DNA of 64,000 bases from Raillietiella orientalis. Taxonomy: Eukaryota. The translations under genes and the position numbers were made by a program. How positions within the stretch are numbered: position 1 is the first letter of the stretch; each line of letters begins with the position of its first letter. The stretch is taken from positions 4,092,001 to 4,156,000 of the forward strand of contig JAYWIR010000014.1 of assembly GCA_036172245.1 (NCBI GenBank). Direction: 5' to 3'. Below the pieces are notes generated by a model. It saw only the letters and a list, made by a program, of their open reading frames with translations. It made no database searches and was not told the DNA's origin. Of this stretch, positions 26,071-60,470 are shown in pieces.

Positions 26071-26879
26071 GTACACCACGTCCTTAACTTCTCCATCCTT
26101 TAGAAGTTTCGATGTCCACGTTTACTGGAAGTTTAGGTGCTCATGAAAGAAATTAAGAGAGGAGCTGGTCACCATCTCTACGGTTTAGACTATTTGACCA
26201 ATCTGGATGAATCTGGGCGAATCGGACCCTGTTCTGCAAGTCGGCGAACGAGTGACCACACTCGAAACGTTCCTTCGAGAGCTCTGGAAGATTCCAAGAC
26301 GCGAGAGTAGATACTGGGGTCTGGCTCAGCACCTTGCCGGAAAAGAGGAGTTTGCATCAGTACCAGCCATTGTTGTGGGATACCTCGGCGGTCGAGAGCC
26401 AGGGAGCTGGAGGACCTAGAAGATACCCAGAACAACGGAAGATCAAGAGGAAACGAGCCGAGTACATCAGAAACGAAATGGTATGCAGAAACATAGAATG
26501 CCCACGGGAGACGTAATCGAACCGTGGACAGGCCGCCGAATGCAGAAACTTGTGGAAAAGAAGGTTTGTTGGAGTCTCGAGGTTGTGCAAACTCTGGAAA
26601 TTGGGCATGATCTTCGGAATTCTGCGTATTCTTCCCAGGAGGTTTCTCTGGAATACCAGCGCTTTGAGCCTCGAAGGATGATCAACGCAACCTCCCAGTA
26701 GATGGCAGAACACTCGGCTGATGCGGACCGCCCCGAGTAAGAGTGACAGCACTCTCCACAGAGGCTGGGCGTGTGCATTCGAGAGATTCTCCAAGGTGAA
26801 TCAGTGGTCTTCTCATTGAGGAACGTGGCAAAGTGGCCTTTTCCGAATAACAGAGTCGAGGAGTTGCTACAATCGCACG

Positions 26880-27070
26880 CAGGTTACAGAAGACGCGGCG
26901 GGTGTGACCGGCAATCCTTGTCCCTTCTCCCTCCTTTATTTGTTTATTTATTGCCCCCTATCCTACATCCTCTCTGCCCTTCTTGTGTAGCCGACCTGAG
27001 AGTCAGTGGATTTCTATTTTTTTTTTGTTGTCCTTCCCCTGAATTTTCTATGGACTCGTGGATCCAATAA
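26880..27070 (+). mobile_element. LINE 3' UTR fragment of the same family
   Basis: CCTTGTCCCT...TTTATTTATTG and GCCGACCTG resemble 47041-47120 and 44733-44745. Confidence 0.5.
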
Positions 27071-27079
27071 TCCACATGG

Positions 27080-28920
27080 CTTTTTTATTTTTCTTTGTTT
27101 GGAAAAGAAACACCTTGGAAAGACCGGATGAAAACAATCGCTAAGGGTGACCATCCAGCTTCCGAGGAGCTTTCTTTCCTTTTCTGAGTAAACTCGGACC
27201 CTCTCGTCTTCGGGCCATGACGACGCGATGCGCATGGCAAAGAACGACCAGCGCTGCAGAGGGAGGGCACTCCGGCTTCTGAGGCGGAGATACTGTTCGT
27301 CGGCGGATGCAGCACACCGTCCGGGAGACCCAGCACTCGAAGGATCCTCCTCCGGACGGGTACCAATTCTGTCACAAGCTGGGGATGGACCTCCACGTGT
27401 CCTCAACATGGAGGCGGTTCTTCCTTTCCTCGAGATGCAGCTGACTCTTCTCGTTGCTGGGGAGTCCACGGTGCATGAGCAGAGATGCCGATTCTGGAAA
27501 ATGGATCTCTAAGGGTCCTGAGGGCTTCCCTCCAAAGCCCACGGCTTCACTTCAGGGCCGCAACCCCATCCGCCAAGACGCGGTCCTTGTCTTCCGCGCT
27601 CGTCGGCCGGCAGATATATTGTCGCCCTCGGAGGACTCTCGCGGTGGCCGTAGGGAGACAATGGGGCTGCGCGCGTGCGGTGTGGTCCAGGAGTTCAGGC
27701 ACTTGGAGATCCCAGCTTGGGCGGCTGTCCATCCTCGGGAAAGCGAGTCGTCACACTCCTCTTCCCAGTCTGGGGTTCGCCCCTCCCACGAGGGAGGCAG
27801 TGGGACGTGGAGGGAGGAGGTCGGTTCCCCCTCAGGGTGTGAATCGGGTGCTTGCAGTGGCGGGGGGTTCGGGGGCTAAAAGATGATTGCCAGAAGGGGA
27901 GGGGGGAGAGGAGAGGTCAGTTCGAGAGTAGGGGCGAGGCAGGGAGCCCAGGACGGACGAGCGGTGAACCGTGCGCGGGGACATGAGTCGAAGGCTATCT
28001 CCATCCATGAGGACCTAGCAGTTGCATAAGGTCTCCGCCGAGAAAGAAGCACTTCTTCTAGAGGTGATCACTGTTACGGTGCTTTTGACCTGACACGGAA
28101 GAAGGGCTCCTTTCGGAGCTGAGCGACAGGGGGCCGTGCGGGCACCCCTGGACGTTGCTTGAGCGAATGTGTGGGAGGGAACTTGAAGGCGGAAAGGAAC
28201 CCTTCGAGCGTCCAAAAATGAACAGCTATGAAGATGATCCGACGAAATGCCTGCGTTCTTTCCGTTCCACTCTGAACGTGCTTGAAGATGCCTCCGGAAC
28301 TGAAGCTCTGCCGAAGACTATCCGTCGGCAAAAGATGAGAGGATCGTCTTCCATTACCGAATAATGGCTTCCTCGATCCCTCCCATTAAATCCTGGAGGG
28401 GGATATTGGGAGAAAGTGCATCCGGCGGAGTGACTACGGGGAAGGCTGCCGCGAAGTGTAGCGCGCTCGGAATCCGTGAGCGGAGTCTGCTAGGATGAAA
28501 AACGCGAGAGATCATCACGGAGTCACAAGGGCGGTCTCTGAGTTGACGATGCAAATCGTAAGAATGAGAGTTGTGCGTGTTCCGGAAACGATTGTTTTCG
28601 AGAGCTTGTGCAACTCTCGGAAGTAGTGCAGTTGGTCTCCGACCCCCCCTCTGTCCCTTTTTTTTCCAGATGAGTGAAACGCCATCCTATCCACTGCAAC
28701 TGGTCTTCCTTTGTGATTTCTCACATCGGAAAAAGACTGTTCACGGCGAATCGTGCAGACATGGCGGACGCAGCATCACAAGGGCGCCGCCTTTCCCAGC
28801 CGAAAATTCTTCAATGGGTGAGGGGGAAGGGAAGGAGGGAAGGGAAACGAACGTGACCATGGTGTGGAAACCACCGGCTACTTTCCTTCACCCTTCCTCT
28901 CTTTCCTACGGGATCGCGTC
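27080..28920 (-). mobile_element. decayed Tx1/L1-like ORF2 (RT to C-terminal finger)
   Basis: Remnants SLIWKK..RPTALL, AFKFPP, LLMHRGLPSN, ELVPVRRRIL across frameshifts; A-rich end on minus... near 27080-27110. Confidence 0.6.
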
Positions 28921-39953: not shown

Positions 39954-40095
39954 GTTTGATTTCAGCTTCAAGCTTCATCTTTAGTCTTCCTTATGGACAC
40001 TCACAAAACCATGACCTGAATCATCTCTAGCCAGGCATCTTGACGCGTTGAATTGAAAGCAGCAAGATAGAGTTGGTACAATGACCAGAAGTAAT
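39954..40095. repeat. 142-bp segment duplicated at 41162-41303
   Basis: Base-by-base identical by eye, GTTTGATTTCAGC...CCAGAAGTAAT. Confidence 0.95.
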
Positions 40096-41122
40096 CACAG
40101 CATGCAAAAATGGATGGATAATCTGATGCGTACATCCAGACACAAAAACTTGATGTGTCTGGACTACAGTTGAACGAATTTGTATGCTAAAACCCTATCC
40201 TGTTTCTTACAAAAGAGCTCTCCCTAGTTTCCTTCCCGAGGTCATCTCAGTGAGGAGGGAGTATCTCGACTCCTGCAGTGGCAGGCGTCGAGATACTCCT
40301 GGACGGCTGCAAGACGAACGTGTGGGTGGACGGCGCCACTCGTCGTTTCCAGACGAAATGACTCCTTCGGTCGAGTGACCTGCTCGGTTTATCACCTGGT
40401 CAAGCCGGGACGTTTATTATAAAAAATAAAAATACATGTGTAGGGTCATCGGCCCTACATTGTCCGAAAACATACCGGAACCTAACGAGTGAGCGGCACG
40501 CAAACCGACGAGGTTCGCCTCGGCAGCGGAGGGGCAATCAAGAATAAAAATAAACGAAAATCAGTAAAAAAAAAAAACTCTGAGGAGCACGGGAAGGGCT
40601 CACTGTCCTTTGCATCCTTTCCAGGATGCTGGCAAGTTCTATCAGAGAATGCCCCTGGTGGCGCCATCTTGCTGGCGTCCTCAGGAAGCTCAGGGCGAAG
40701 CAGAGGGTATCCCTATCGCGCCGTCCCCCTCTAGAGTAGCTTTAGGCCACCGCAATCCCACGTAGACAGAAGCAAAGAGCTGCTGAGGATGCGGCAGGCG
40801 AAAGGGCATCACGCACGAAGAGTCGCTTTATTAGACGTCCTTGGGATTGTCCGGTGGTGCCCCGAGGGCCATTGCATAGAGCAGCCTCAGGGTCCAGAAG
40901 GCAACACAGTCTACGAGCAGGTGCGAGAGGAATTCCCGTTCCTCGCACCTGCAATAGTTGGGGTCCACAGCTCCTGGGTCCAGTGAGAGCGGCGGGTGTT
41001 GCTCGGGAGATCCCAGAGCAACAGCATAAGTGCCGACTCCTGCCACTCCAGGGGGAGATCAAGTTGTTCTTCAGCGCTGGGATCACTCGAGGTCTTCCTA
41101 TAGGATTCCCAGCAGCTCACCC

Positions 41123-41334
41123 CAGCGCAATATAGTCCCTTCGGTGGGACTATATTGCGCTGTTTGATTTCAGCTTCAAGCTTCATCTTTAGTCTTCCTT
41201 ATGGACACTCACAAAACCATGACCTGAATCATCTCTAGCCAGGCATCTTGACGCGTTGAATTGAAAGCAGCAAGATAGAGTTGGTACAATGACCAGAAGT
41301 AATATAGTCCCTTCGGTGGGACTATATTGCGCTG
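41123..41334. repeat. 17-bp perfect hairpin, 142-bp insert, then 34-bp re-copy of the hairpin
   Basis: CAGCGCAATATAGTCCC-TTCGGT-GGGACTATATTGCGCTG at 41123-41162; 41129-41162 repeated at 41301-41334. Confidence 0.95.
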
Positions 41335-42401
41335 TCACTTGGGTTCGCAGAGTCCTTGAGCTGGCCAGTGGTCTAGTCACCTAATTCCTTCGCTCTTCCA
41401 CCGATCTCACATCGGACCTCCCATCTGGCCGGCCGGTTACTGTCCAGGTGCTTCCTGAGGGACGGCAGTGCCGCGGCTAGGGTGGTTCTTTGTGCCCACG
41501 CACACGTGGTGGGCTGCACGATGACGTCCTGCAGCGAGCAGTTGTTGTAGAAGGAGTGTAGCAGTTGCTGCCGCATCTCTGGGTTCACTTCCTTGTTCTT
41601 GGCCTATGTGCGAACGATTTCCTGAAACCAGGCACTACCTTTCGCGGGCCAGCAAGAGATCCAGTTGTTGGTCCTGGTTAGCTTGACCACTCGCCGGAGC
41701 TCTACTCTGCAGCTGGACACGTTGCGTCTGCGCCGCCGCGCCAGAAAAGAAGACAGTCCCGCTTAGCCAGTGGCTTGTTTGACCAGGTATCGTTTGGCCT
41801 GCACCAGTTTGTGCTCCAAAACTTCGCCACTAGGGTAAGCGTCCTTTACTGCCTCTCGGCTTTCTGCCGCTCCAGGCGCTCCAGCGTCAGAAAGCCGAAG
41901 CCTCTGTTGTGACACGGAGCGCACAAGTCCTTCAGGCGGACTTGGGGCCTCCCTGTGTTCCAGAGGTCGATTCTAAGGAGGTCCTTTGTCCGCCTTTTAG
42001 TTCTACTCAGTGGGGGGCAAACAAAAAGCAGGGGACGGAAGAGAGGATCCACAAACGCGTTCCATACCGCGGCTCGTTTCGACAAGAGAAACTTGTCATT
42101 CTGTAACGGGCCGATCGCTGACTCTGCTTTCTGGAGGTAGTTGGACCACTCCTACGCCGGAAAACAGTTCCCCAGCAGTACACCGAGGTACTTAAAGTAC
42201 CAAATCGTGGGGATCCTTAAGAGGATCCAGTCCAGCTTCCCGGTCCACGCCGAACTACTAACGATTTCGCCCTGTTCACTTCCAGTCCTGTCCAGCGGCT
42301 TGACAGCTCAAAGAAATCATCCAGTGCCGACCCCAGGGTGGACATAAAGAGCAGCAGCAGAAGATCGTCCGCATACGCCGATACAGCAGGTGTACCTGGG
42401 C

Positions 42402-42744
42402 ACACCACCAGACTTAAAAACATTCTGCCGGCACTTGTTCGCATCCAAAACCGGATGCAGTGGCCTCCTCACGGCGTACCGTGATCCCTTCCCTTCCCTT
42501 CCCTCCCCATAAAACATTGTCCCCCCAGGCGTTTTTGTTTGTTTGTTTGTTTTTTTTCTGGGTTTCCGGCCCATTTCGCCAGTGGAAAGGACCTTACCGG
42601 CTTGCGGGTCGGTAAGGACAGGTGCCCCAAGACAGTCAGAACTTTGTGTTCCGACTGAAAAATAACTTTAAGGACAAGACTTTATTATGAAATTTTCATT
42701 TGTAAAATTCTAATAATAAAAGCCCCGGCTTACCCGGGTGAAAA
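42402..42744 (+). mobile_element. 5'-truncated LINE insert A (mainly 3' UTR)
   Basis: TSD ACCTGGGC at 42394-42401 and 42745-42752; removing it restores host CMGPGTPAVSAYADDL in frame; ends AATAAAAGCCCCGGCTTACCCGGGTGAAAA. Confidence 0.9.
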
Positions 42745-44511
42745 ACCTGGGCCCATGCACGGCAGGTGAGCGAGGGTCTCTATGTACGCCCTCAGCACCA
42801 GCACAAAATAAGTACTGAAGGGCAAGGGGCTCAAGCTGTTGCCCTGCCGTATTCCGCGGCACACCGGCACACCGAACACGTTTCGTCCACTGAAAGAAAA
42901 AGTGGTCAAAGCGTCGTCCAGCAAGAGCGCAGAAAGGTCGTCAAAGAGGCCGGGAAGCCCAGGCGTTCCAGGAGCTCCAGAAGAAGTTCCTGGTCGACAC
43001 AGTAGAATGCTTTCCGCAAGACGACTGCGACCGCAAGGGTCGAGACCCAAGGGGACCTTTCCCGACCATTCGCTCACCATCGGCGGACATCCCGGAAATC
43101 GGAGTGCCGACCGTGTTCCCTGCGTTCGCTCTTCTCTGCTGGAACTGAAACCAGATGTTCGCGGAGAGCCGGTTAACGTCCATGCTCCGCCCGGGAACAG
43201 CGTAAATGAAGCTTTCCGCCACCCGTCCTAACCTCTCCACAGTTTCGCCAGCTACTCGGCGTCTGCGTTCAACACGATGATCGGACGCCAGTTGCTGAGG
43301 TACCTTAAGTCCCTTCCCTTCGGGAGAAGACTCATCCGCACCGATCGGAAGGAACGTCGCCTGTCTCCCGAATCAGCAGCGTTAAGCGCTGCACCAAGGG
43401 GGTCGGCTCCTCCAAGAAGCATTGGAAGAACTCCGTAGGCAGACCGCCTTTGTCTCGCGCCTTCCGCCTCTTGAGCTTTCCGATTGCTGTGAAGATTTCA
43501 CCCATCGTAAAAGGCGCGTCGAAGCGTGCTCTCTCCTCCTCCCCAATCTCTGGGCCGCCTTCCGGAAGCAACTCCGCTCCGGAGGTGTCCTAGCATACAG
43601 GTCGGAGTAATAACTGCGCATTGGGAGCTTTACTGCCGAAGGGTTCGAGTGCTCCTGGTCGTCGTCGTCCAACAAACTGGACGACCCGGGTTGCCAGGCT
43701 TGACGCACGGCCACGGCTTTGTGCTCTGCTAGTCGGCGGATGTCCGGTGTTCGTGTGAACCGACGAGCCTGCAAGTACACTCTTTCGTTCCGAACACCCT
43801 CGTCGAATCCTTTTGGAAGACGGTCCAGGGGGAAACGCCCGCGGAACTCTCGGACTAAGACCTTCAAATCGTCTCAGTCGTCGAGCGCCTGCATGCTGCA
43901 ACCTTTCAGGAATGCGTGGAAGTGTTCCGCTGCACCTGGCAAGTTGAGCCATTCCCTCGGGAGTCGCTACGCCTGCAAGGGTGAGGATCTCCTGTCACGC
44001 GGAAGAATGTTAATTTCCACCCAGAAGTGGTCGGAGAGTGTGGACGGCACCTTTCCTCGCCTCTTTACGCGGTAGCGCAGGTGCTGATTGAGGAAGACGT
44101 GGTCCACGCTTCCCTCCATTCCGGGCTCCCCGGCTAACAAGTTGGACGCGTGCATCGCAGCACCCGTTTTGTTAACCGGAGTGGACTCTTCCTTCGTCGC
44201 ACCTGACAGCAGGCGGATGTTGAAATCACCGGCTATGAGATGTGTCTTGAGCACGCCTGCCTCCACAAGCCAGTCGTGCTTCAGGGTAGGGAATAATACT
44301 CTCCGTGCCGTGCGCGGGCAGCCACCGCTGGATGGGTACACTTTCGTAACAGCGAGGTCGATCGAGTCGGTCCACTTGAAAATGATTCGACCGACCCGAC
44401 CTGCCTCGTCGAAACTTACGCTTTGCAACGCGCGTTGCAGGGCAGACTTGAGCAAGAAGACGACCCCGCACGACCGGTGGGAGCCGCAATGCCACGGGAG
44501 CTGACCGCCCG

Positions 44512-44841
44512 GAGGCCACCGAAATAGCCGACGAGAACATGACGTCGGCTGCCAGGTGGTCTCATCTTCCAGAAGACGCAAGGAAGGAGATCTCCGGCAT
44601 CCAATGCCGGTTTTGAAAGAAAGGAACGGCCGAAGCCAAAGACCCCTGTCTCCTCCCCTCCCCATATCTTTATTTATATTTTTTATATGTGTATTTGCGG
44701 TCCCCTCCCTCCCGTTCCGGACTTTCGAATTTGCCGACCTGCGTGTTGGGGAGACTTTCCTTCGTTTTTCTGTTCCCTTTGTCTGGGAATTTTTTTCCTG
44801 GATAGGTTAGTAATAAACGCCCCGGCGCACCCGGATAAGAA
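44512..44841 (+). mobile_element. 5'-truncated LINE insert B
   Basis: TSD GGA(G/A)CTGACCGCCCG at 44497-44511 and 44842-44856; carries ORF2 end (PMPVLKERNG), CCTCCCGTTCCGGAC and the terminal stem-loop; splits the host endonuclease. Confidence 0.9.
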
Positions 44842-45007
44842 GGAACTGACCGCCCGCTATCCTTTCGATCTCTCGCGTGTGTTCTGGTGGATCTCCTGCA
44901 GGAGTACGAGGTCAAAGAGTTGCAGGGCCTCAGCTGTGTCTCGTCTCCTGCCGTCGTGGGGAAGCCCGTTGATGTTCCAGCTGACCACGCGTAGTCGACA
45001 CCAGGTG

Positions 45008-47245
45008 GCGAGTCCCAGCCTTACTGTGGGAAAGTGATGTTGCGGCTACCGCCTCTGGTTCGGACGGGGTGCTGCTTGGGGACCCTGTGGCTGGGGTTCC
45101 ATGCTTGGTGTGCTCCCCGAAGGACTCGTGGTCCCCCCTCCCCTTGTGTGCAGACACCTCCGTGTTCCCTCTGAGTTGTAAACGGGATGCCCTGATGTTT
45201 CCGCGCTAGAGGTTCCAGTGCAATCAACGCAAACACCTGGTTTCCTGGAGAGTTGTCTCCCCGAATTGTTTGAGGTGCAAGACGATCGAATCATTCCTGC
45301 ATCTTTTTCTGGAATGTAATGCCCTTCGGAACTTATGGTGGAAGCTCGTTTCGGCGCTCCGACAGCCGCAGGACACCGTGTTGGACTGACTGAGACGCTT
45401 CTTCACCATAGGCGGGCTGAAGAAGAGCTCTGTGATTTCATACCCGGGTGCGCCGGGCATTTATTTCTCTTAGAGAGATCAATGAAGCCAAAAGGATTAT
45501 TACACTTAAAATAAGGGGAGGCCAGCGAGGTCAATCACGTCCACGAACGAGAAGGGGGATGAAACAAAAACAGAAAATAAAAACAAACTATAGCAAACAA
45601 AAACAAAAAACAAAAATCAGTTGGAGGGAAGGGAAGGAATCAAGCTTCGTGGTGGATGAGGCCTCTGCATCCGTTGGAGGATGCCGGCGAGCTCCTCCTT
45701 CTCCCTTTCCAGTTGGAGTCATCTCAAAGCTATCTGTAGGAAACGGATGGCGTGCAGGACAGTCCCTCCGTCGCTGCGACCTCTCTCGACGCCGCACTTC
45801 GCCGCGACGGCACCGCGCACGCAGCACAGCGCTGCGATTGCGGCTTCGGGCGTCATGGAGTCCCGCACGAAGAGGGTCCTCAAAGAGTCTCTGGGATCGT
45901 CCACGGGGTGCGGAAGGGACGCAGAGAAACGTTCCCACAATTCCCGGAGGGCGACATACTGCACTATGAGGTGGGGGAATGTCTCCTTCTCTCCACATCT
46001 GGCACAGTTCGGCGATGCGCTTCCCCTCGTCCAGTGGTGCGCATTGCACGGGAGACCCCAGTGCAGTATCAGCAGCGCCGATTGCTGCCACTTGAGGAAA
46101 CCCAGGTTACTGTCCGTAAACAAAGGGGCACTTCGAACTCTTCGGGCTGAATGGAGAAGAGTTCATCCCAATGTTCCAGTCCTTTGGAGACGGTTGTTGC
46201 TGTTGCCGCGTTAGCCAGCCACCGATAGGCTTCCTGAGGGCCGAGATCTTGCAGGAAACCTCCCACTCCGCCGGTAGGCAGGAGCCATGTACCGCGATAG
46301 CGGAGGAAATCGCTGCGGCGAAGGGGTGGCTGCTGGGTGGGCCAATATAGGGCCTAACTACGCACCGCCTCCAGTGTTCCTCCGCTGTTCTTCTGAAACT
46401 CTCAGCAGCGGGTAACTTCCAACGGATCCGGGTGAGTTGGGCCCACGTCCTCACTTTCTCCTGCCGCCAGGCCGGGATGTTCGCAGGGCGGCAGCAAATC
46501 CACTTGTTTGCTCTCACCAGAACAGCGACACACCGGAGAGGGAAGTCGCAAGATGGGAGGTGGTGGTGGTGGCACGCAAACAGGGTTGCGAGTCCTTCGC
46601 CACTCACTGCCAGTCGGGAGAGAAAACGTGCAGGAGCGCACCAATGGGTGGCCTACTTCTGTGCTACGAAGGCCAGTCTTCGGAAGTTCAGTTGAACTTC
46701 CATGCGCTCCAACGTCAGCAGTCCAAGTCCTCCGTCGCGACGAGGAGCGCACAAGTCTTTTAATCAGACTCGGAACCTCCCACTGCCCCAGAGGGCTTTT
46801 CGAAGGAGATCCTTCGTCCGTTTCATCATACCGGGGGAGGGGTCTGTGATCTCAACGAGCTTCTGCATCCGCGCGCCTTGGCAACAGCCCGTTCCGTGAT
46901 GGAGTCTCGTTCTCAGCGGAGGGAGGTCACCACCTCGATGAGGACGGCTACGCAGTGGTCTCACCTGCGAGAAGTCGCCAGGGAGATCGCCAGCATTCAG
47001 CGCTGGCCCTAGGAAGGATGGAGTGGCTAAAATCAAAGGCCCTTGTCCCTACCCTTCTCCATCTTTTGCTTTATTTATTGTATCCTCCCTCCCGTTCCCG
47101 ACTCCCTTAGAAGCCGGTCTGCGAGCTGGTGCTCACCTTCAGCCGACTTCTTTTGTTGTTGTATCTTTGTGTTTAATGGATACTGACCCTTCTGACTTGT
47201 AATTTACTTATTTTTAAAGAAACCTCCCGACGTGACCCGGTACAA
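45008..47245 (+). mobile_element. 5'-truncated LINE insert C (itself interrupted by D)
   Basis: PNCLRCKTIESFLHLFLEC finger near 45260-45320; reading resumes SVIS-TSFCIRA after D; 3' UTR about 47040-47245; candidate TSD ACCAGG(T/C)G at 45000-45007 and 47246-47253. Confidence 0.8.
45441..46842 (-). mobile_element. 5'-truncated LINE insert D, inside C
   Basis: TSD TCTGTGAT(T/C)TCA at 45429-45440 and 46843-46854; LKDLCAPRRDGGLGLLTLERME and LHWGLPCN...PNCARCGEKETFPHL; ends AATAAATGCCCGGCGCACCCGGGTA. Confidence 0.9.
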
Positions 47246-47639
47246 ACCAGGCGAGGCTTACGACGCAATGTTTCCTCAGTAGTAAAAATGCCAAGAGCGC
47301 AAGTTCACTTCGGACCGGCAGTTTCACACAAGCGATCCCTTGAGGGTGAACGGTGAACTCGTGGATGTTTTCCGGGTGTTCAAAGTCGCCAACTTTCCAC
47401 GATTCCACTAGTGTGAGAAATAAACGAAAGAATAGAATAAACGTCTGGAAAATGCACTTCCATAGAAGACACGTGCGCCTCAAGGCAGCAGGCAGCAAGA
47501 CGAGACAGGACCAAGACACGGCAGCTCGGAAAGTCCATACTTAATCTATAAATGTAAAGTACGAAAAAAATTTATTGCTTATATCCTAGACAATGACTCC
47601 AGTTAGCTTCAGCTGCTTTGAAAGCAAATCTTCCACTAT

Positions 47640-47950
47640 CCAGAAACTGGTGCAATTTGGAATCTTCTCGGTGGAGGTTCGAACTCCCTCTCAGCGAATG
47701 AGTTCTCGAACAATAATTTGGCATGCTTCTCTTCGAAAGTGTTCGAATAACTGGAGATAAACATAATCTCTCGAACGGAGTTCCACTGGCTATTTCCTTC
47801 CGCATTCACCGAGAAAGAACGGAATTCATTCCGTTCCTTAGAGTCGTGCATGCATTAACGAGCGTATCCTCAGAAAGCTTCATTCGGATGCCGAATTGCA
47901 TTCACTTGAAAAATGCATCAGAGCTGGAAGGAGTACGATGCAACTGAGAA
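47640..47950 (+). pseudogene. leucine-rich-repeat remnant
   Basis: FSNNNLACFSSKVFE*L and LTSVSSESFIRMPN fit extracellular LRR consensus. Confidence 0.35.
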
Positions 47951-49339
47951 AACTCAAATAATTTTCAGAAAGTGATTTCATCTCACCATTAGTTTGCTTT
48001 CAGTTTTCGTTTCTCTAAAGGACTCTCTCTCCGAGTGCACTGAACCTGTCTTTCTGAATTATCGAATCTTGTGAAATGCAGGCTTGGCGGCCGTTATCTG
48101 GTTAAATGGCATTGGATTCGTTTCTCATGCCTATTATATGAATGATGGGAAAAGCTAGACTTTTTTGCTCGGTCCACTTTAGGTTATATGGAAAAAAAAT
48201 GAAAAAAAAAAAGACTATATATGGGGAGGCATCTTCTAGCAAAAAAGCACTCTGAAGATCAGAATGTGCTTTTTCACTTTCTTGATCCTGCTTTTACTTA
48301 CAAAACTACTCATGATCTTCCTTCTGAAATGAGTCCGCGACCTGCAAGCTCTCTTCAGCTTTCTGCTGCACTGAAGATCTCTGGAATTTTATTACGTGTA
48401 TTGCAGCTTGCATTTAAAGTCCACTGTCTTCAAGCCAAGAAGCATTCTACGTTAAGGATTTTTCAAAGTCCCCTCAAAACCGACTCTCCGCCGTGTTTGA
48501 CCGTGACAATTTCTGACGAGTTCACGTGTTTTGAAACAGTAGGACCACAAGTCCCCAGGAACACAAGTGGACCTTTCATCACCAATCTTTTAACGAATCA
48601 GGCAATGCTAATCGACTCCGTCGACTTACTGCGTTCCTGAGCTGCAAACCTCAGTAGAAGTCGCTATTTCTCATTTACACGAAGCTCGAAGTAACTCTTG
48701 AAGCCATCTAAGCAGAAGAACAAACTGTACCTTACGTACCTGACTATGCATGACGCGACTGTAGAATTCCAGGTGGTCCCTTACATGCTTGTCGCAAACA
48801 GTAGACAGAAGTAAGAGCTCCCAACAGAGATAAAAACTGCGAGATACATAGAGGGAAATGAAAATTCCCCCTTTATTTATCTCGCAGGTCTCAGAATCAC
48901 TGATTTTGTACCAGCACTTCACAGAATTAGAAGACTCGATCTTAGACCGTTATTACTACTACCTAGTGAGATGCTCTGCATCAGGAGAGGGACCATCAGA
49001 AAAAAAAAAAAAAAAAAAAACGGATATCCATCATGACTTTTGATCTTATGACTTCTTTCCATCGTCGAATCACTTTCAAAGGCCAAATCATTACTCCGAA
49101 ATCTAATAGGAATGCACAAAATAGGTGATGTCAGTCATTAGGAACCAAGTGTACCGTAACAGGCTGAAATCGAACCCTGGGGCGTTACTTGTCTGCTTTT
49201 GCCCGCGATGCCATGCAACGAACGTGCATGGCGCACAAGGAAAAGCACAAGTTCAAAGTTGGTTCGCTAAGTACCTCAGAGCCGGTCGCGTGCCTCGCGG
49301 CGCACGTGGCTCTTTTTTTTTTTTTTAAACATTAAACAC

Positions 49340-50125
49340 TATTTTGTTTCCACGCCCCTCCGCCCGCGGCAACCCGCAGGGGGACGTGTAATTCTTCAGG
49401 ATAGGGGGCACCCCGGGATGGGGGTCCGCCCTATGAATCCAGGAAGGGCTCGGAGTCCGTTCCTCTCACGCTTGAGGAGGGATTCCCCCGGACGGGGGGG
49501 ATCGCACCTCCCACCCTGGTTGTCTCCGAAGGGGAACCCCGAAGGGAATCTCCTTCCTCATTCTCTCCGGAGGGACACCCCCCACCAATGGGGAGGGGCT
49601 GTCCTCTCCACTTCAACTTCATTTCAACTTCTCCGAAGGGAACCCGGAAAGGATCCGCTTGTAGGAATTTCTTCTCCTGAGGGAACCCGCAAGGGAACCG
49701 CTCCTTTATTCACTCCTCTGAAGAGAACCCCGAAGGGACGCTTCCGAAACTCAGAAGGGGCGCTGCAGCTTCCCGCAGGAAATCGCTCTCGCTTCCTTGT
49801 GCACTCTGTGAAGAGGCGACGACTCGGAGGGTCCCCCGGTGGGGGGGGTCCGCTCTCCGTTGCAGGACAGGAGGGGGGGACTCCCCACTCCTTGATTCCT
49901 GGGAGGACCCAAAGGTCGACTCCCATTGTTCCGGCCTTCATCGGGGGCCTCCGGCTTAATCCACCTCCGGTGCCACGCCCGAATGTCTCGGCCAACTAGC
50001 GCCATTGCAGGAGAAACTCGGAACTCAACAACGCAGTGGCGTCAGAGTTTCTGCCGAAGTATTCGAACCCGCGACGCATGGTGCCACACGCGGAAGCCTT
50101 AACCACAAGGCCTCCGACGCGGGCC
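49340..50125 (-). mobile_element. tRNA-derived SINE, copy 2
   Basis: Head GGCCCGCGTCGGAGGCCTTGTGGTTAAGGC...GGGTTCGAATAC (B box 50059-50070); body colinear with about 62850-63644; no TTTT on the transcribed strand in the body; A14 on minus at 49313-49326. Confidence 0.8.
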
Positions 50126-52799
50126 TTGTGGTTCAAAGTTGGCAAAAGAAGATGCAACACCTGGGATTTGGAACCCGATTTTGGGTGCACTCAGTCACGC
50201 GGAGCAGAAGCAAAATTGTCCCAAATGTTTTGCACACATTTAGAGTTGCAACATTTAGTAAAACCTCTCCTTGCAATTCCAAACTTTCCGAACTGAGGTG
50301 ATTTCATGGGGTCTCATGTCAGTTTGACCAGCGGCCAGAAAGATTTAAGACGATGTCTCCCGAGAAAATCGTGCTCAAGAGATAGAAGTCACCTTTCACA
50401 GGATCGTGGATACTAATTCCAAATAAACTTGGAATATTAAAAAAAAAAAAAAAAAAAAAACCAAATCGTCTACAGCTGACACTTCTAATTATGGCATAGT
50501 TACAAGAATCGTGCGTAAAGCAAACACTCTAAAATGATGAGCTCGGTGGAATAAGAGGAAAACGATAGAATAAACAGCGTTGAGTTATAAAGCACGCGAA
50601 AAAATAGGGAAAAATCAATTCGTTCCTCTTAGTGATTCGATCAATAACCAATCACACATGGCTACAAATCCCTCACATGCGTAGTTATAGCGGCGGACGA
50701 CGTCCTCCGGAGAATCACATCTTGCGTTCCGCAGAGCGTTAACCATGTTAATCTCCAGACATGACTCTGAGCATGCAAGAAGTAGCGCGTCCCGTTTGTC
50801 GTAATGCGATATCATCCTTTCAGTCTCTGTGAAATCTCGTCTCTTCCCTTGAGGGTGAAGGCGGCACTCGCTGCCTTCGCCACTTGAGCAAACCTTTGGT
50901 CATCCTTTAGCGAAATTTTCCTGCAAATCTTCTCAGCGCTCGGTTGCCACTCGATCATTCGATACGGCGAGTTCCTCCTCCAGGGTGGATTTCGCCCTCT
51001 GTTTTATTTAGATGAAGAAGGCGTCTCTTTCCGAAGAGCATCTGCTGTCCGTGTTTGCTTTGTGCACGGGAATGTATTTCTACTTCATAAATAAGCATGA
51101 GGAATGTTCATTAAGCTCGCTGCTTTGTGGTGCGGCTGCTACGGGACGGAGGGTCCAATGGAAGCTGCTGGTTGGTGTCTTTCGTTCCCAGTGCTCTCAG
51201 CAGCGTGTGCCCTTCATACCGCCTCTGGCTGGTACATCCTGAACCTCAAGGTGCGTTTATTCCACATGTGCTCCGGCTCTTTGGACTCCTCAGACATGGC
51301 GACACGGCTGGAGATGATTCCAATGGCAAATCGAAATCGAAGTGACCACACAATCAGCAATGGACTGGTGGTGATTCGAGTTCGAAAGCACATCTAATTT
51401 CCGCTTCATTTAGTCGCGAGTTTTTCATCTTCCGAGCGGGAGAACTGATTACGTGTGTTCGATTGGATGCGAAGACGAACAGTTTTTGAAGAGAAAGTGA
51501 AAACTCTCGCTCTGACGATTGCTCGTGTGGGAAATCCGAGTGTTTTTGCATTCGAGTAGGGATTCAGAAATTAGAATTCGTTTCGTATGCTCGAAGAGCG
51601 TAAGCATTTTTAAAAGTGTAAGCATTCTCTTTTTTTTTTTTTTTTTGAGACTGTTTGGAATTTTGAGCATTTCAAAAATGTTCCTTTTCTGATTCGGGTT
51701 TCGGTTTTCCAAGAGGAAATCAGCGCTTATAAGAGAACCTTCGTGAATAGAGGAATCATTTCGTCTGTTTACAAAGCCCGACACATCTTCCAGGACACGA
51801 GGCCGAAGATTCCTCCGTGTTTGTTTCAACTTCTCTTCATCGTTGTGGTTCGGATGAATTCTCAAAGAAGACGGGCAGGAGCGACCGTGCTAAGGCGCAC
51901 GCACAGCTCCTATTGAATTTATATAGCAATGAAAATCGAAAAGCGACCAGGGAACAGAATTCCTCCCCAGGAAAAGTCATGAAGTACCTGGGAATGGAGC
52001 CGATGAAACCGAATTTCGCGCCATCAATTTTGATGTATAGTGGAGTTCTAGAAAGGCTATTAGATGATCTACAACGAACAGCATGGACCATAGAACTTCC
52101 AAATATGCATGGAGCTTTACAGAAACGTAACGGTTTGCTTCAGTCGTCGAGGAAGTGCGGAAACGGATGAACTTTTGCTATTAGGACTCTGAAGGGACGA
52201 ATTCATATGGGGTTGCCTGCTAGAGATGGCGGCGGTGGATGCAGAGTTTGATTTCAAATGCTAATGGGATAATTAATGTTTAAAAGCATCCGGAGGATCT
52301 TAATGTTGCATCTTTTCTACCTCCCTGCAAGCATGAAACAAGTGCATACAAATAAACAGAAGCAGGCAGACGTGGGGGCAAATAGGGCGCAGCCCACTCG
52401 TACCAGCCTGCATGACCATGATTTACATGTACGTGTTCCTTCACTCCCATGACAGTGCAATTCACACGCCAGTGTCTCGAGAGCTGCGCTCCCCTCGTCT
52501 CCTGAGACCTGTGAGCAAAACATGGCAGAGGCAAAGTTTTTTTTTCCTCAGCAAACCTTACCAATTAATTGGACAGAAAAGTTCTGCTGGTGAGTTCAAG
52601 ACGTCCACGTTCTTAAGGGAATGAAACATCACGGCGCTTTCAAGATTGAAATGCAAGCCGCATGATTCTCTGGGAGCAGTTTTCCGGGGAAAGCGAACAT
52701 CATTCACAGGTCCAGCATTGGTTTCAGATGTCACTTCGGCTAGAATGGAATCATCGATACGGTTGATCAAAAGGCAAACAAAAGAGAAAAAACACCTTC

Positions 52800-55700
52800 A
52801 ACATTCTCGTAACAAAAATACCTGAATGTGCAGACCCTCATCGGAAATCGATCTTCCCAGCATTCTCAATCCAGTAGTCTCATAGCTGTTTCCGAGTTTT
52901 CCCTCTGTTATCTGGCTAGCAACGGGGCTTTCCTCCTTGAGCGCACTCGGATTGAGAAATTCTTCACCGGAATACCATTTAGAGAGAGAATCCAGCCGGG
53001 GTCCTCAGATCAAAATCGGTTTCATCTCGGGGGGCGTTTGCTAATTGGAAGAAAGAGGGGAGCGAAGTGATGGCGTCTCTCGCGGCAAGTACTGTAGTAG
53101 CCTGGCTCGAAAATGGTCGTCTTCGCCAGAGGGGGGGGGGGGGGAGAAGCTTCACCGGTCTGCGTTTCAGGTCTAGCTGACCACGAGGGGCACGCGTTGC
53201 CGCTTCAAATACACCGAATGCCTTCAAGCGCTCAGTTGCCTCACGATGGAAACGGCAGTCCTTCAGGAACTTCTACAGGAACTTCTCTCGTGTTCGGAGG
53301 GCAAGCCCAAACAAACGGGAGACCCCTGCACGGCCTCAGGCTGCAGCGCGCAGAGCCGCATCGGAGGTTCCGACGGGGAGTTGCTTTGCTCATCTTCTGT
53401 GAGAGTCTGGGGAAAATCCAAAGGGCGAGAGAACTTGACCACCAGGGTTCTCGGAAGTGGACTCCACATCGTTATAGCGGTAAGCAGAAAACAAGGGAGG
53501 AGTTGCCGAAATCACCAGCTTGGCCTTTTTACCGTATTGCACCATCATCACAAGCACACTGCCTATTATGCTTGCCCAACACCCGGCTTCCATAGATGAT
53601 AATAATGGAAAAAAAAATTAGCTCTACTCCTGATGGGGGATGCTCCGGCTGCGAGTTGATTAGCCAGTCGGAGATTTACGGCAGAGCTGGATTCCCTCCG
53701 ACAAAGAGGAAATCCATCGCTCTCGATTCGTGCAGTCGCGTTCTTCCGGGGACGCGTGAACGTGGGTTCGTCCACGAGGACGTTGACCCAGAGGAAGGCG
53801 AAGGTTAGTACTTCGGTCCAGAGGATCACTGGAAAGATTGCGGCTGGGACGTCCAGGGGCAGGCAGACACCCGACCGGATGAAACCGGGAAAGCGTAGCA
53901 GTTGATCAGAGCGTGGAGGCGCGGCTAGCGGCTCGGGAACTGACCCGAACGTGGGGACCACGCGGATCGCCTTCGTCGGAAGCACCAGAAGCACCGCGTT
54001 TGCGAGGGTGATAGATTCAGTTTTCTCACTCGGTGTTCTTTCCGTCGTCCGCCATATGCCAGCAGGACGACCTCGCATTGCACCAATTCTCACGAAGAGC
54101 TCCGGGAAGCTGCACGCGATCGAGAAGGAAGCTCCGTTTTTAAAATATCCAAGCGAGACAAGTGGACGCAGTCCCGTGAGAGTCCCTTTTTTTCCGTTTC
54201 TGCCAAGGGCATGCCGCATTTTTCCTTTCGCCAGGAATCGATGGGGATGCCATCTCCCGACTGGGTCCTCTCTGCCACCACGGACGGACGGACAGGACGC
54301 ACTGCCCATCGCGGGGTGCTCTTCGGTCTACGAGAGCCGCTGGTTTCACGGATCCGCACATAGAGCGATGCAGACCTTTCCTCCTCTGCCCCGAGTTTGC
54401 TGCTTGCATATACCATCGATTCTCCAGACGATACGCTCCCTCTGCGATGAAGAAGCTGCGTGAATTCTCGATGATGCGCCATCCTCAGATCTGTCAGTGG
54501 TCTCCCGTGTGCCCCCAGAACGCATTCTCTCGCTGCAGAAAAAATCGCCGAATGACCCTGGTGCAATCGGAATGCAGCAGGAACGTTTGGCATCCCGGCG
54601 GCAGAGTACTTGGGCCGTGGGCCTCACACCCGCTCCCTACGACGGGCTTTCCCAGAAGGCAGACCGAGACTGTTTGGAGCTTTGCCTACCTTTCCCTTTG
54701 TCTACTCCCACGAACTTGGTGTCCCTTTCTTGTGCCTAAACACTTCCGTGTTCCCGCTGAAATGGAAGCAGGACATCCTGCTGTTTCTGCATTGGGGCTT
54801 CCAGTATGCAACCAGCGGAGAATTTCCGGAGGGTGTCGTGTCCCGAACTGTCTGAAATGCAGGGAGATTGAATCGTTCCCGTCCCTCTTGCTGGACTGCA
54901 GTGCCCTCCAGGAACTTCGGCGGAGGCTGAAGTCAGCAATCCTGCATACTGAAGACTCTGCGGCAGAATTGCTGCAGCGATTCTTCGCTAGAGATAGAGC
55001 CACGAGAGACTCCGTGATAGCGACGACGTGTTGCGTCCGTGCCATCGTTACGGCCCGCCATTTGCTGGAGTCTCGGTGGTTGCGAACGGAGGCCGCCATC
55101 GCAGTCTGCCAGGTGGTCTTAACTAGGAGAGGAAGTGAAGAAGGAAATCGCCGATATCCTGTGCCGCTTCTGAAAGGAAGGAACGGCGACCATAGACCTG
55201 CCGTCCTTTTTTATGCAATTGTTTGCCGCCCACTCCCTCCCGTTCCGGACTTTCCCCGGTGTTTCATGAAGGAACGGAAAAAGCCAGAGACCTTGCCCCT
55301 GGATCCTCCAGTGTATGTTTGCTTTTGTTTTTTTTGCCCCGATCCCCCAGCTCCGGACGTTCAGGAAACCGGTTCAGGAAACGTGTCGGTGAACCCTCCA
55401 CTTGAGCTTCCTCTGGACTTTTCTTTACAGGGAAATCGCCGTCTCGACGGTTACTTACCCGTCTCGTAGGTTTGCTTGTGGGATAAACGCCCCGGCGTCA
55501 CCGGGTGCAATCTGTCTGCTCCCTGCCAACGTGGTTTGCTCTCCTTGAGTGAGCAGGAACGGCATGTCTGCACCGTTACGAATTCAATGCGAGCGCGAAA
55601 CCGCACACGCACCGTAGGTGACATGAAAAGAATAAAGAGAACGGGCGAGGTGGTGGTTCCGTCCCAGAGATCCCAACAAGGAGGTACGTAGGGAGAAGGA

Positions 55701-56940
55701 GGGGGGGGGGAACTCCTTGAAAAAGGTTTGGATCCGCTATTACAAAGCGTCTGGAGTCATCCCACAGAATGGGGCAATTTGGGGCGGCGATCGCGGATGG
55801 AACAAACGGGCGGGCGGTGGCCCCAACTTAGAATTTCGGCGATGAAAGGGGGGGAGGGGGGAGGGGAAGAAAGATTCTTCCATGGAGCGTCTCATCCTGT
55901 TTGTAGATGAGCACGAGCACGAGTCCATTCCTGTATCCACAGAAACGCATGGTCTCGATATGGGGCTGATATATGTTTAATGGGCGCACATGCTCATCGC
56001 GCGTGTTACATATCGAATCGACACGTAAATGCACATTTGTAGCACGTCAGTATACATGTGCCTTCCTGCGGATCACCTCTATTTTCTAGTCTACGACACG
56101 AGAGGGAGTTTTCCTCCAGGGAAGGCTGGGCGTGTTCAGAGGCTGCACGAAAGGACGTCGTTGCGAAGGTGAGTCGGCTTCGCGAGAGTGGCCTGAAGAG
56201 ACCCAGGAGCCACCCGGTCCCAAGGAAAGTGAGTGGACGAGGTCGCGTGTGAGGTTTGGAAAGCAGTGAAAAAGGTCGTTTTCTCCGATCTCCCAGCCCG
56301 GGCAGAATTTGCAAGGGTCGCTCCGAAGGGTTCTGCTCAGGGGGATCTTCCTCGCGCAGGGTCGGTTCCAGCTCGAGGGATGCGAGAGGCAGGGGCCCAG
56401 CGAGGGGACTCGAAGTCGAAAAGCGGGACTGGAAAAAGTCCACGGACGGAACTTCCCCAGGGAGGTGGGTTCGATGTGGAATTCTTTTCCCGATCAGTGA
56501 GGTTCGCTTGCCCGAGGACTCCTTCGTCACAGAGACATGCAGACGCAGAAGGGAGGGAGGCCATTTGCAGCTGGCGCCTTGCGGCCTGTTCGTGGGATGT
56601 TGCCCGGGGAACGCGGACATCGACTGGATCGGTCGCTTTATGATAGGTCAGCTCACTCGCAGCGCCCGAATCAAAGAAAGACCACGTACTTCGTCGGACA
56701 GCATTCGATCCTGGAACACCTATTCAACGGCAAATGGCATCGGTTCGTAGACTAAGGATGCATTCGTTCATGAGCCTGCGGCTCACGTTCCACTCTGGGC
56801 GGCCCATCTCTTGCAAGGACGGCACTGGTCACCTGCGCGGGAGGTGGGAGGAATCACTAGGTGACGTTCCCCACGGATAGGCCATCATGCCCGGGATGTA
56901 GCGCGACCCAGAGCAAGAGAACCGTCAACCAGACCATCCA
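52800..56940 (-). mobile_element. older decayed Tx1/L1-like element G
   Basis: EN remnant (LSVGNV, SLQEM) at about 56800-56880; RT remnants RQIA, KGLSRDCVHLS, GCATATG(G)CGGACGAC (AYADD with +1) near 54050, FAFLW; RGLP near 53320. Boundaries approximate. Confidence 0.65.
54569..55503 (+). mobile_element. 5'-truncated LINE insert E, inside G
   Basis: TSD GGTGCAATC at 54560-54568 and 55504-55512; LHWGFQY, PNCLKCREIESFPSLLLDC, TCCVRAIV, PVPLLKGRNG; 3' UTR motif and terminal stem-loop. Confidence 0.88.
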
Positions 56941-58449: not shown

Positions 58450-60470
58450 CTAAATAGAAAGGTGAAACGAGAAACTGTCGATGACCTCAGACAAGCCAAA
58501 TTTTTCGTAAGAGAATGACGGGTGCAAGCCTTCCGTTCGTTCTCCGATGAGAACGTTCATAAACGGGAACCTGTTCTCACATTTGGAGATCAACTCGTAC
58601 CTCCGGGTAGAAGGAAAGCTAAGGGAACATGAGGGAAAATGGAAAGCGCTCTTTTAGCCTGGAGCACGATTTTGCATCTCAAAGCATGAATTTCTCCAGG
58701 ACAAACACATCAGGAGCGTCGGAAACGGAACATCTGCCCTCACCAAATGCGATGATGACTCTCGAAAAGGACGTTTCTCAGAGCGAAAATGATGCAGGAA
58801 ACTCTCATTTGAAAGGGTTCGGATGCTCGGAAATGGCTGCTGCTGAGTTCCCAAAGCCCTTCGTTCCCGCCCACTTGCTGCGGCGGTCCGCAGAGACTGA
58901 GATTTTCCGGATCACCAGCACCCGTAGACCCAGTTCCTCGAGACAATGTACTGGAGTTCGCGCTGCGCCTCTTGTGAGAAGGTTATTATCCGGTCATGCC
59001 GGGACGTTCTTTAATAAAAATCAGGAACACGAAGGTCAGCACAGAACACAAACGAAGTTCAGGGAGAGGGTCCACCAACCCACAGGTCGGGATTCCTAAG
59101 TGTCCGGAACGGGAAGGAAGGGACGATCAAATAAACACGGGAACACGGAAGGGATGAGGCAAGAATCTTCCGTGTCGCTCCTTTTTAATGTAAAATCCGA
59201 AAAAGTTCCTGAGAGAAAGGGAGGGAAGATAAAAATAACAAAATAAACAAAGGGAGGGCGGGGACAACGGTCACTGGTGTCGGCCGTTCCTTCTCTTCAT
59301 GACTGGCGCTGGCTGCCGGATCTCTGCCTTCACTTCCACTTTCAGGTGAGGCCTCCTAGCAGCCGCCCTCATGTGAGCGACTGCCATGCGGGTGGCCTTC
59401 CGTCTCTGTGCTTGCGTCTGCAAGACATGGTGGACCGTAACGATGGCGCGCACGCAACATCTCGTCTCGATCCCTGCGTCAATCGAAGGTTCCCCGCGTG
59501 AGAAGAACCGCTGCAGCAGGTCACGGGCGATGTCCTCCTGTCTCGTAAGCACAGAAGTCGGCCTTTACCGCAGTGCATGGAGAGCGCGCCGCACTCCAAA
59601 ATCAGGTGCGGGGGAGGACTCCACCGACCCGCACCTGGTGCAGACTCTGAGATACAGCCACCCCGGAGACGAGGTGCCAGCGCTGATTGCATCAGATTCC
59701 CAATAAAGAAAGATCAGGACCTCATTTTTCCATTTAAGCGGGAACACCAACGTGTTCAGCATGAGAGAGGGATTCCTGGTTCGTCGGCGGACTCACTCAG
59801 CTGGCCCCACCGACGTAAGTCCACAGCCAGAGTATGAGGAGATGGTAGCATTCACCAATCCACGAGTCTTCCAGCCGCGAAGGAGTTTTGTCAAGGGCAC
59901 AGGAAAATTCCCAACTCGCCGGTTGAAAGTTTAGTCTCAGGGCTTGCCCTTGGAGCAGACAACACTGCAGCAAGAGCTGTGGCAACCATAGTAGACTACT
60001 TTGGCGAATCTTTCATCACCTCTTCCAACGGATGGGTGAGGAAGTGGCTCAGGGGGCAAAGTTGCTCTGAGCTCATTCTTGAGTTTGTAGACCAGAACGC
60101 AACAGACTCTTGCCTTTAGGCGTTAAAGTTCTTTGGGCGGCAGAAAACCCACGGATGGACTTTTAAAAGGGAGACGAGTTGTTTCAGGGGGAAGCCAAAT
60201 CCCTGCATCCTGTACTGGGAGTCCGGCAGCAACGAGAGTAGTTCTCTCCAGGAGTATCTCGGAAAGAGACGTGCTGGCGCACAAAAGGAGAAAATCTACA
60301 GTTTGGCACAGAGTGCCAGTATTCGGAACTGCATCCATGGTCCGATTGTAGGAAGTGGGGCAGCGGTAGAAGAAACGCTTCACAAGGGAAATCTACTACT
60401 AGCCTCTCAGTTGCACCATCCCATCCCCCATCGCTGGATGCTTCCAAACGATTTCGCACCTGCACAGGTC
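58450..60470 (-). pseudogene. ionotropic receptor (IR/iGluR-like) remnant interrupted by LINE F
   Basis: In order: DGGWDG, TVDFL, LPF, CLLQGQ, LLILWLWTYVG, [LINE F], LTRGAARTPVHCLEEL, KERF, EKFGL; follows the S1-M1-pore-M3-S2 layout. Confidence 0.45.
58985..59790 (-). mobile_element. 5'-truncated LINE copy F
   Basis: LNTLVFPLKWK...CTRCGSVESSP, LLQRFFSRG...CCVRAIV, PVMKRRNG; TTCCCGTTCCGGAC; terminal CCCGGCATGACCGG. No TSD resolved. Confidence 0.85.

Follow-up and report, generated by a model that had tools for sequence, protein, structure and literature searches.

Transposable elements commonly cluster within other transposable elements. Orientation bias among such nested copies has already been documented genome-wide in human (Levy, Schwartz and Ast 2010, PMC2836564). 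In the available portions of that study the biases are described as family-specific and are explained mechanistically from sequence features of the elements, while same-type self-insertions in sense orientation were ignored, being hard to call. The strand logic of such insertions is also found in the available part of Servant, Streva and Deininger (2017, PMC5717806), where a nick on the coding, non-template strand leads to an insert that is antisense to the transcription unit, a relation that the locus described here resembles. A full-text literature search did not bring up any report of a LINE family that nests into itself in antisense.

In the 64-kb window (the whole stretch of DNA that was analysed), a nest of LINE copies within a LINE is present at 40388-47521. 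The first-pass annotation had proposed that this family nests into itself, and that it does so in antisense in each of five cases. Our analysis upheld the self-nesting for three inserts (A, B and D) and probably for a fourth (C), but not for the fifth (E), whose host does not belong to the family. We regard it as likely that the nest is an ordinary transposon pile-up, in which the antisense pattern would not reflect a targeting rule.

The LINE family and its decayed host copy

Eight family copies were counted in the window, five on the plus strand and three on the minus strand. Seven were recognised by a pattern match to the 3′ end common to the family, composed of AATAAA, a CCCGGC..CCNGG hairpin and a few A, and the eighth (K) was recovered with the family profile. 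A short A-rich tail of 3-5 A follows the AATAAA at a distance of about 20 nt, and where their 3′ regions were aligned the copies are only 43-59% alike. As is characteristic of APE-type LINEs, they have the same 3′ end, variable 5′ truncation points and flanking target-site duplications (TSDs). Five TSDs were compared with a positional null of 3000 random position pairs given identical search freedom; those of A, B, D and E stood out from it at p ≤0.014, and that of C did not. With regard to L1-clade features, a CCHC-type motif is present, seen in copy C as a C-terminal motif of the CX2CX7HX4C type, and the tail consists of a few A only, after AATAAA.

Searches of large protein collections yielded no detectable relatives of the endonuclease ORF or of the 429-aa ORF of E, and neither Rfam nor a tRNA scan gave any match in the window. 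The 3′-end pattern occurred at 28 metagenomic loci, none similar to the window, against a rough, uncomputed chance estimate of about 29. A 3′-end pattern match at 5449-5470 was discarded, as it had no nhmmer support. Pfam, run on 90 long ORFs from other parts of the window, gave one match at the E limit of 0.01, to UL42 (E 0.0093, 16.4 bits vs a cut-off of 25), which was dismissed as chance. A DNA sequencing run (X1) shares 7% of the window's words, as short contigs that are mostly 80-90% like the window (147 of 184 below 90%, five at ≥99%). Its contigs leave the bins 47032-47500 without cover, to which no weight was given, and the run was used solely for the 142-bp piece missing in other family copies and for the run-on at the boundary of A, both described below.

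The host copy (H1) is a minus-strand LINE at 40388..47521, of about 3999 bp after insert removal, with an APE endonuclease, an RT, a CCHC-like tail and a 3′ UTR. The latter closes with AATAAA, the hairpin and a short A tail, and the resulting 3′ end at 40388 is the exact start of the interval of the first-pass annotation; the 5′ end is tentatively placed near 47521. Six motifs follow one another on the minus strand: SWNING (44982), LLQEIH (44904), GDFN (44230), SDH (44035), RQGNSLSP (42849) and YADD (42375), the first four of which we take to be APE endonuclease motifs. H1 is decayed, with stops and frameshifts, which explains why its N-terminal APE-like domain is only weakly recognised (Pfam Exo_endo_phos E 1e-4 and 22.6 bits, under the 24.5 cut-off; PDB L1 endonuclease 2v0s weak, E 0.42). 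The RT carries the QG..SP and YADD motifs; it scored E 0.13 with Pfam RVT_1, and its best PDB match, also weak, was the R2 RT 8gh6 (E 0.0066 over the motif region). For H1 itself, no TSD better than 8-mers carrying one mismatch was found, which is what chance would give; CCGAGC[T/A]G at 47522-47529 is a possible 5′ one.

One apparent event in H1, either real or an assembly artefact, is not of LINE origin. At 41129..41335, an exact 142-bp copy of 39954-40095 is flanked by two exact 35-nt copies of a hairpin segment. H1 exceeds D by about 206 nt across this stretch, which other family copies in X1 skip, with joints 41112>41358 and 41125>41336.

Insertions in the nest and elsewhere in the window

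Two plus-strand inserts, A (42402-42744) and B (44512-44842), consist of 3′ UTR only, have 3′ ends that align with the family and lie antisense to H1, whose sequence occupies the stretch between them (42402..44842 span). A is bounded by the 8-bp TSD ACCTGGGC at 42394-42401 and 42745-42752 (p 0.014), and its excision (351 nt) leaves 33 residues from RQGNSLSP to YADD in one frame. Other family copies in X1 continue straight through at 42403; this is a loose end, of which 17 of 27 letters match, by eye, H1 past A. The TSD of B, GA[G/A]CTGACCGCCCG, is found at 44498-44511 and 44843-44856 (13 of 14 bp, 11 exact; p ~0.001), and excising B brings the endonuclease spacing back to normal, but with a frame shift.

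C (45006-47245, plus) is a 5′-truncated copy with the CCHC region and 3′ UTR, divided by D. Its two halves are colinear with E across D: 45104-45411 corresponds to E 54696-54993, and 46843-47103 to E 55011-55251. The flanks of C repeat ACCAGG (6 bp, at 45000-45005 and 47246-47251), which is not rare alone (p 0.14). Given this weak duplication, the 96-codon open frame obtained in H1 upon excision of C (null 3-5%) and a slight decrease in GC around 47530, C probably sits in H1, eight codons upstream of the endonuclease start. D (45437-46842, minus) is a 1.4-kb 5′-truncated copy, colinear with H1, that lies in C in antisense and is bounded by the 8-bp TSD TCTGTGAT at 45429-45436 and 46843-46850 (p 0.014). 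Like C, it holds the CCHC region and 3′ UTR, and Pfam zf-RVT matched 45722-46162 with E 0.04.

E (54710-55512, plus) is a 0.8-kb 5′-truncated copy in GC-rich DNA, with TGTCT[A/G]CTCCC (10/11; p 0.008) at 54699-54709 and 55513-55523. It had been read as an insert in a minus-strand family host, here called G, a GC-rich block (0.51-0.60) flanking E at approximately 52900..56940. The TSD of E stands, but G could not be matched to the family, in plus or in minus orientation, by blastn, tblastn, Smith-Waterman alignment against shuffles or nhmmer profiles. Neither were LINE motifs (Pfam, motif scan), PDB or Atlas leads or terminal repeats found in G, and as it is unrecognisable as a LINE or any other element, no strand was assigned to it. 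Two candidates from this block were rejected. The first, G as a plus-strand copy, came from a z 4.3 alignment of 53223-53274 with the CCHC region of E, which the nhmmer profiles miss. The second, a ninth 3′ end at 54539-54561 (plus) with nine letters in common with the terminus of E, was rejected because 53800-54600 is without family similarity.

Two further copies lie in hosts that do not belong to the family: F, a 5′-truncated minus-strand copy at 58983..60372 (upper end approximate), and K, a decayed plus-strand 3′-UTR fragment at approximately 26817..27134. K was found by profile search only (nhmmer E 1.6e-7) and reaches the 3′ end of the profile.

TSDs of 8-15 bp had been reported around every insert. 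Those of A, B, D and E were recovered, within an overall range of 6-14 bp in which the 6 bp of C are weak. The observation that target sequences differ between inserts was borne out, and the insertion points lie at four unrelated host positions. Copies, orientations, boundaries and the continuity of the hosts can be read directly from the window, and from them we infer an order of events. H1, a nearly full-length APE-type LINE of the minus strand, would be the older element and would have become a neutral landing ground, to which separate target-primed reverse-transcription events later would have added the 5′-truncated A, B and probably C. These inserts would derive from related yet strongly diverged LINE lineages. 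D, one further copy, would then have entered C, and each event would have left its own short, variable TSD at an unrelated target sequence.

Orientation of the nested copies

All resolvable self-nests in the window are antisense, and none is in sense orientation, even by profile search. As E fails as a self-nest, the five of five initially counted (about 1/32) become four of four, three of them firm, with p 1/16 one-sided and 1/8 two-sided for a pattern that was chosen post hoc. Four events from a single locus, three of which share a host, do not allow an orientation rule to be judged, and so small a sample is compatible with a true bias of at least two-fold. E and K are plus copies without a host from the family, so the plus orientation does not depend on an antisense host. 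Of the seven copies besides H1, four inserted into family sequence, with H1 making up about 4 kb of the 64 kb; this is more than expected under uniform insertion, in a window that was chosen for nesting. Chance is the most likely reason for all four running against their host, perhaps together with a modest bias such as has been reported for LINEs in nests or within genes.

A real antisense bias at integration is unlikely. It would require a putatively transcribed host copy in which only antisense insertions are completed, and by the two routes proposed, transcription-coupled repair would clear template-strand intermediates or the non-template strand of an R-loop would be easier to nick. The count of four of four agrees with it, as does the strand logic, which the first-pass annotation had correctly laid out: where a minus host holds a plus insert, the first nick fell on the coding, non-template strand of the host. 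In the same direction, the antisense bias of human L1 in transcribed genes is reported, in the available part of PMC5717806, to need transcription-coupled repair. However, the sample is four, and human L1-in-L1 nests show the opposite, with 21,559 sense vs 9,899 antisense in the accessible portion of PMC2836564.

To a similar degree it is improbable that a regional strand bias, for instance through replication direction, favours plus inserts, in which case A, B and C would not be independent trials. All five short 5′-truncated copies (A, B, C, E and K) are plus, including the two outside family hosts, and such a bias would account for the three H1 inserts about equally well. L1 integration has a strand preference relative to replication. 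It has also been linked to replication forks (PMC10760644, in its available part). D and F, however, are minus, and five plus copies out of eight are no significant excess.

Less probable again is survivorship, according to which sense and antisense nests arise equally and same-sense nests are lost by recombination or deletion. The loss of direct repeats by recombination is generally accepted, and the nest is without any same-sense fragment. Nevertheless, insert and host are about 45-60% alike in their shared parts, a divergence too great for homologous recombination to be efficient, unless the two were far more alike at the time of insertion, and the 3′ UTR parts of the inserts lie far from their insertion points within the host. 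The related suggestion that same-sense nests are merely harder to see fails for the window, because profile and pattern searches revealed no hidden same-sense fragment in the nest.

The full form of the initial proposal, a LINE group that prefers its own kind and integrates in antisense, with host transcription exposing or protecting the non-template strand and inverted nests seeding silencing RNAs, is in our view very unlikely. Targeting by homology, one of its suggested routes, lost ground, as the 3′ parts of the inserts show no homology to the host positions at which they landed. An endonuclease target asymmetry, with a nick motif commoner on the family sense strand that forces antisense insertion, is hardly credible: motif-driven orientation bias is known in human nests (L1/Alu sense bias, in the available portion of PMC2836564) and CC directly follows the A tail in four of seven 3′ flanks, but in H1 neither the candidate motifs (ACC 59 vs 64, A[CT]C 106 vs 103, ACC[AT]GG 5 vs 7) nor the base composition (A 891, T 852, C 1150, G 1106) differs between the strands to any extent, and five target sites do not suffice for defining a motif.

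If an antisense rule were true genome-wide, the transcription or strand state of the host element would steer LINE integration, and this would hint at how inverted nests of transposons, from which silencing loci are built, come about. Read as a pile-up, the locus is a well-resolved LINE-in-LINE nest, which is helpful for repeat annotation and not surprising.

Comparison with known systems

According to the trap model, piRNA clusters are nests of transposon fragments. The locus resembles them as a dense fragment nest of related elements in both orientations. Set against this model, the longest inverted match now present in the nest is 34 nt at 88%, formed by the hairpin duplication, the next being 30 nt at 80%, and the self-made dsRNA trap that had been suggested is not evident.

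Neighbouring pieces of a single LINE family on opposite strands also recall the 5′ inversions of L1 by twin priming, reportedly described by Ostertag and Kazazian in 2001. In twin priming, one TSD pair surrounds two non-overlapping parts of one RNA. This origin was rejected for the nest, where A, B and D each have their own TSD and 3′ end and where insert and host overlap in family position.

The family is similar to L1-like APE-type LINEs in its N-terminal APE, RT, CX2CX7HX4C-type motif, AATAAA, variable TSDs and frequent 5′ truncation, and differs from them in the tail of 3-5 A and in the conserved hairpin that precedes it. As regards the host, the available part of PMC5717806 deals with expressed genes and de novo events in cultured cells, whereas here the host is a decayed LINE. 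Finally, the locus shares with the human nests, as presented in the available portion of PMC2836564, the insertion of a retroelement into an earlier element that can be scored as sense or antisense; those nests number hundreds of thousands, with L1-in-L1 sense-biased by about 2.2:1, compared to four antisense events at one locus here.

LINE copies in the window and the host element

GC-rich blocks punctuate the otherwise AT-richer eukaryotic DNA of the window. Inspection of the sequence of 39.7-57.4 kb revealed a recurring terminus, consisting of AATAAA, a hairpin (CCCGGC..CCNGG) and a few A. A whole-window pattern scan located it seven times: four times on the plus strand (42715-42738, 44812-44835, 47217-47241 and 55482-55505) and three times on the minus strand (40395-40418, 45443-45466 and 58989-59012); two extra weak matches were not upheld by later analysis. 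All termini were in register when the seven 3′ regions were aligned, and an nhmmer profile built from the seven copies recovered all of them plus an eighth, decayed copy (K, 26817-27134, plus strand, E 1.6e-7), a 3′-UTR fragment detected by this profile only, bringing the family to five plus-strand and three minus-strand copies. K lies within another GC-rich block. Copies E (54710-55512, plus) and F (58983-60372, minus) are convergent, ~3.5 kb apart and ~60% alike over 0.7 kb, the sole long, imperfect inverted pair in that part of the window.

The host of the nest, H1 (40388-47521, minus strand), measures 3,999 bp without its inserts and is interrupted by stops and frameshifts. A scan for LINE hallmark motifs identified, in canonical order on the minus strand, SWNING (44982), LLQEIH (44904), GDFN (44230), SDH (44035), RQGNSLSP (42849) and YADD (42375). 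Pfam matches comprised Exo_endo_phos (E 1e-4, slightly below cut-off), RVT_1 (E 0.13) and, on copy D, zf-RVT (E 0.04), and structure matches the R2 reverse transcriptase (8gh6, E 0.0066) and an L1 endonuclease (E 0.42); searches of large protein collections found no relatives. As read from its sequence, H1 is a LINE, with database support that is weak but consistent.

Inside H1, the stretch 41129-41335 holds an exact 142-bp copy of 39954-40095, a source located 1.2 kb away and outside the element. A perfect hairpin segment of 35 nt borders this piece on both sides, identical in its two occurrences, and the junctions overlap by 2-3 nt. The copied piece is absent from related family copies in X1, a DNA sequencing run giving short contigs of other family members. 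It looks like either a templated repair insertion of very recent date, made at a palindrome, or an artefact of the assembly.

A ~0.8-kb SINE-like element is also found in two copies ~66% alike (49290-50130, minus; 62858-63644, plus). By reading of the sequence, the first ends with 16-17 A and its tRNA-like head includes a B-box-like GGTTCGAA; ARAGORN called no tRNA. The second contains a 61-nt tandem duplication (63206-63327). Two runs of 22-25 A, ~1.4 kb apart (48990-49022 and 50437-50462), flank the element.

Insertions within the nest

The nest illustrates LINE-in-LINE insertion cleanly. To gauge the flanking duplications, 3000 random pairs of positions were searched with equal freedom and served as the null. 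Insert A (42402-42744, plus), a 343-bp 3′-UTR fragment, has ACCTGGGC on either side (p 0.014); once it is excised with one duplication copy (351 nt), RT motifs B and C share a frame and are separated by 33 residues, the normal distance, and X1 contigs of other family copies continue straight through at its start. Insert B (44512-44842, plus) interrupts the endonuclease in the stretch from LLQEIH to the GVVF region and is bounded by GA[G/A]CTGACCGCCCG (p about 0.001), and its excision restores the spacing but not the frame. Insert D (45437-46842, minus), bounded by TCTGTGAT (p 0.014), aligns colinearly with the 3′-terminal 1.4 kb of H1 and cuts C in two, both parts of C being colinear with copy E.

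Insert C (45006-47245, plus) probably lies inside H1 rather than merely adjoining its 5′ end, because of a weak duplication, ACCAGG alone (p 0.14), a 96-codon open frame that continues into the endonuclease frame upon excision and is attained by random window positions 3-5% of the time, and a mild GC drop near 47530. The targets of A (42394-42401) and C (45000-45005) are alike, and both resemble ACCCGGG, the second hairpin arm of the family's own 3′ end; CC directly after the tail also occurs in the flanks of H1 and F. These resemblances, drawn from very few sites, may reflect an endonuclease preference.

Copy E and its surroundings

Copy E is a real insertion, with a duplication matching at 10 of 11 letters (p 0.008 by the same null). 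It is surrounded by G, a GC-rich block of ~4 kb (~52900-56940) that the first-pass annotation had taken for a minus-strand family member. No similarity of G to the family was detected on either strand by blastn or tblastn, by Smith-Waterman against shuffles, by nhmmer with single sequences and two profiles, or by Pfam on its long and short ORFs; the LINE motif scan was negative, queries of the structure bank and the Atlas yielded no leads, and no terminal repeats were found in G. An alignment of 53223-53274 with E's CCHC region (z 4.3) was set aside, as profiles failed to recover it. On these results E in G is no self-nest, and no orientation can be assigned to G. The anatomy proposed earlier largely stands.

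Chance, strand preference and known orientation biases

All five self-nests had been claimed to be antisense; with E in G removed, four antisense (three of them firm) and zero sense nests are left. For four antisense events the one-sided probability is 1/16 and the two-sided 1/8; without C these become 1/8 and 1/4. The pattern was spotted post hoc at a single locus, and the insertions of A, B and C into H1 may not be independent events. It seems rather likely that chance best explains the claimed rule, which amounts to four events. A regional strand bias is possible: the short copies A, B, C, E and K are all in plus orientation and two of them lie outside any family host, so such a preference would yield the same picture. 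A bias linked to transcription of H1, for instance through R-loops, is also possible, as is survivorship, in which sense nests were lost by recombination.

None of the mechanisms that were checked is supported. The inserts are 3′-UTR or C-terminal fragments; one insertion point separates RT motifs B and C, another falls within the endonuclease, a third a short way upstream of it and the fourth in a 3′ region. Homology-guided targeting is not supported: insert and insertion point show no positional homology, and microhomology at the 3′ junction amounts to one A at most. Endonuclease strand-composition bias finds no footing in H1, whose two strands are symmetric in candidate nick motifs and base composition, and pattern and profile searches revealed no same-sense nests that might have been harder to see. 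The suggested dsRNA trap is not evident: across the 3′ region that was aligned, the copies share only 43-59% identity, and inverted matches within the nest reach no further than 34 nt at 88%, formed by a duplicated hairpin, and 30 nt at 80%.

A full-text literature search found no report of antisense self-nesting of a LINE family. For human, genome-wide measurements of orientation bias among nested transposons exist; according to PMC2836564, L1-in-L1 nests show a sense bias (21,559 vs 9,899) and several other nest pairs an antisense bias, the explanation offered being mechanistic, from intrinsic L1 and Alu sequence features, and same-type sense self-insertions were left out there, being hard to separate from fragmentation. 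For L1 in transcribed genes, PMC5717806 describes an antisense bias arising at integration via transcription-coupled repair, a model with which the strand logic of the first-pass annotation agrees. Orientation bias in nests, as a general phenomenon, has already been described.
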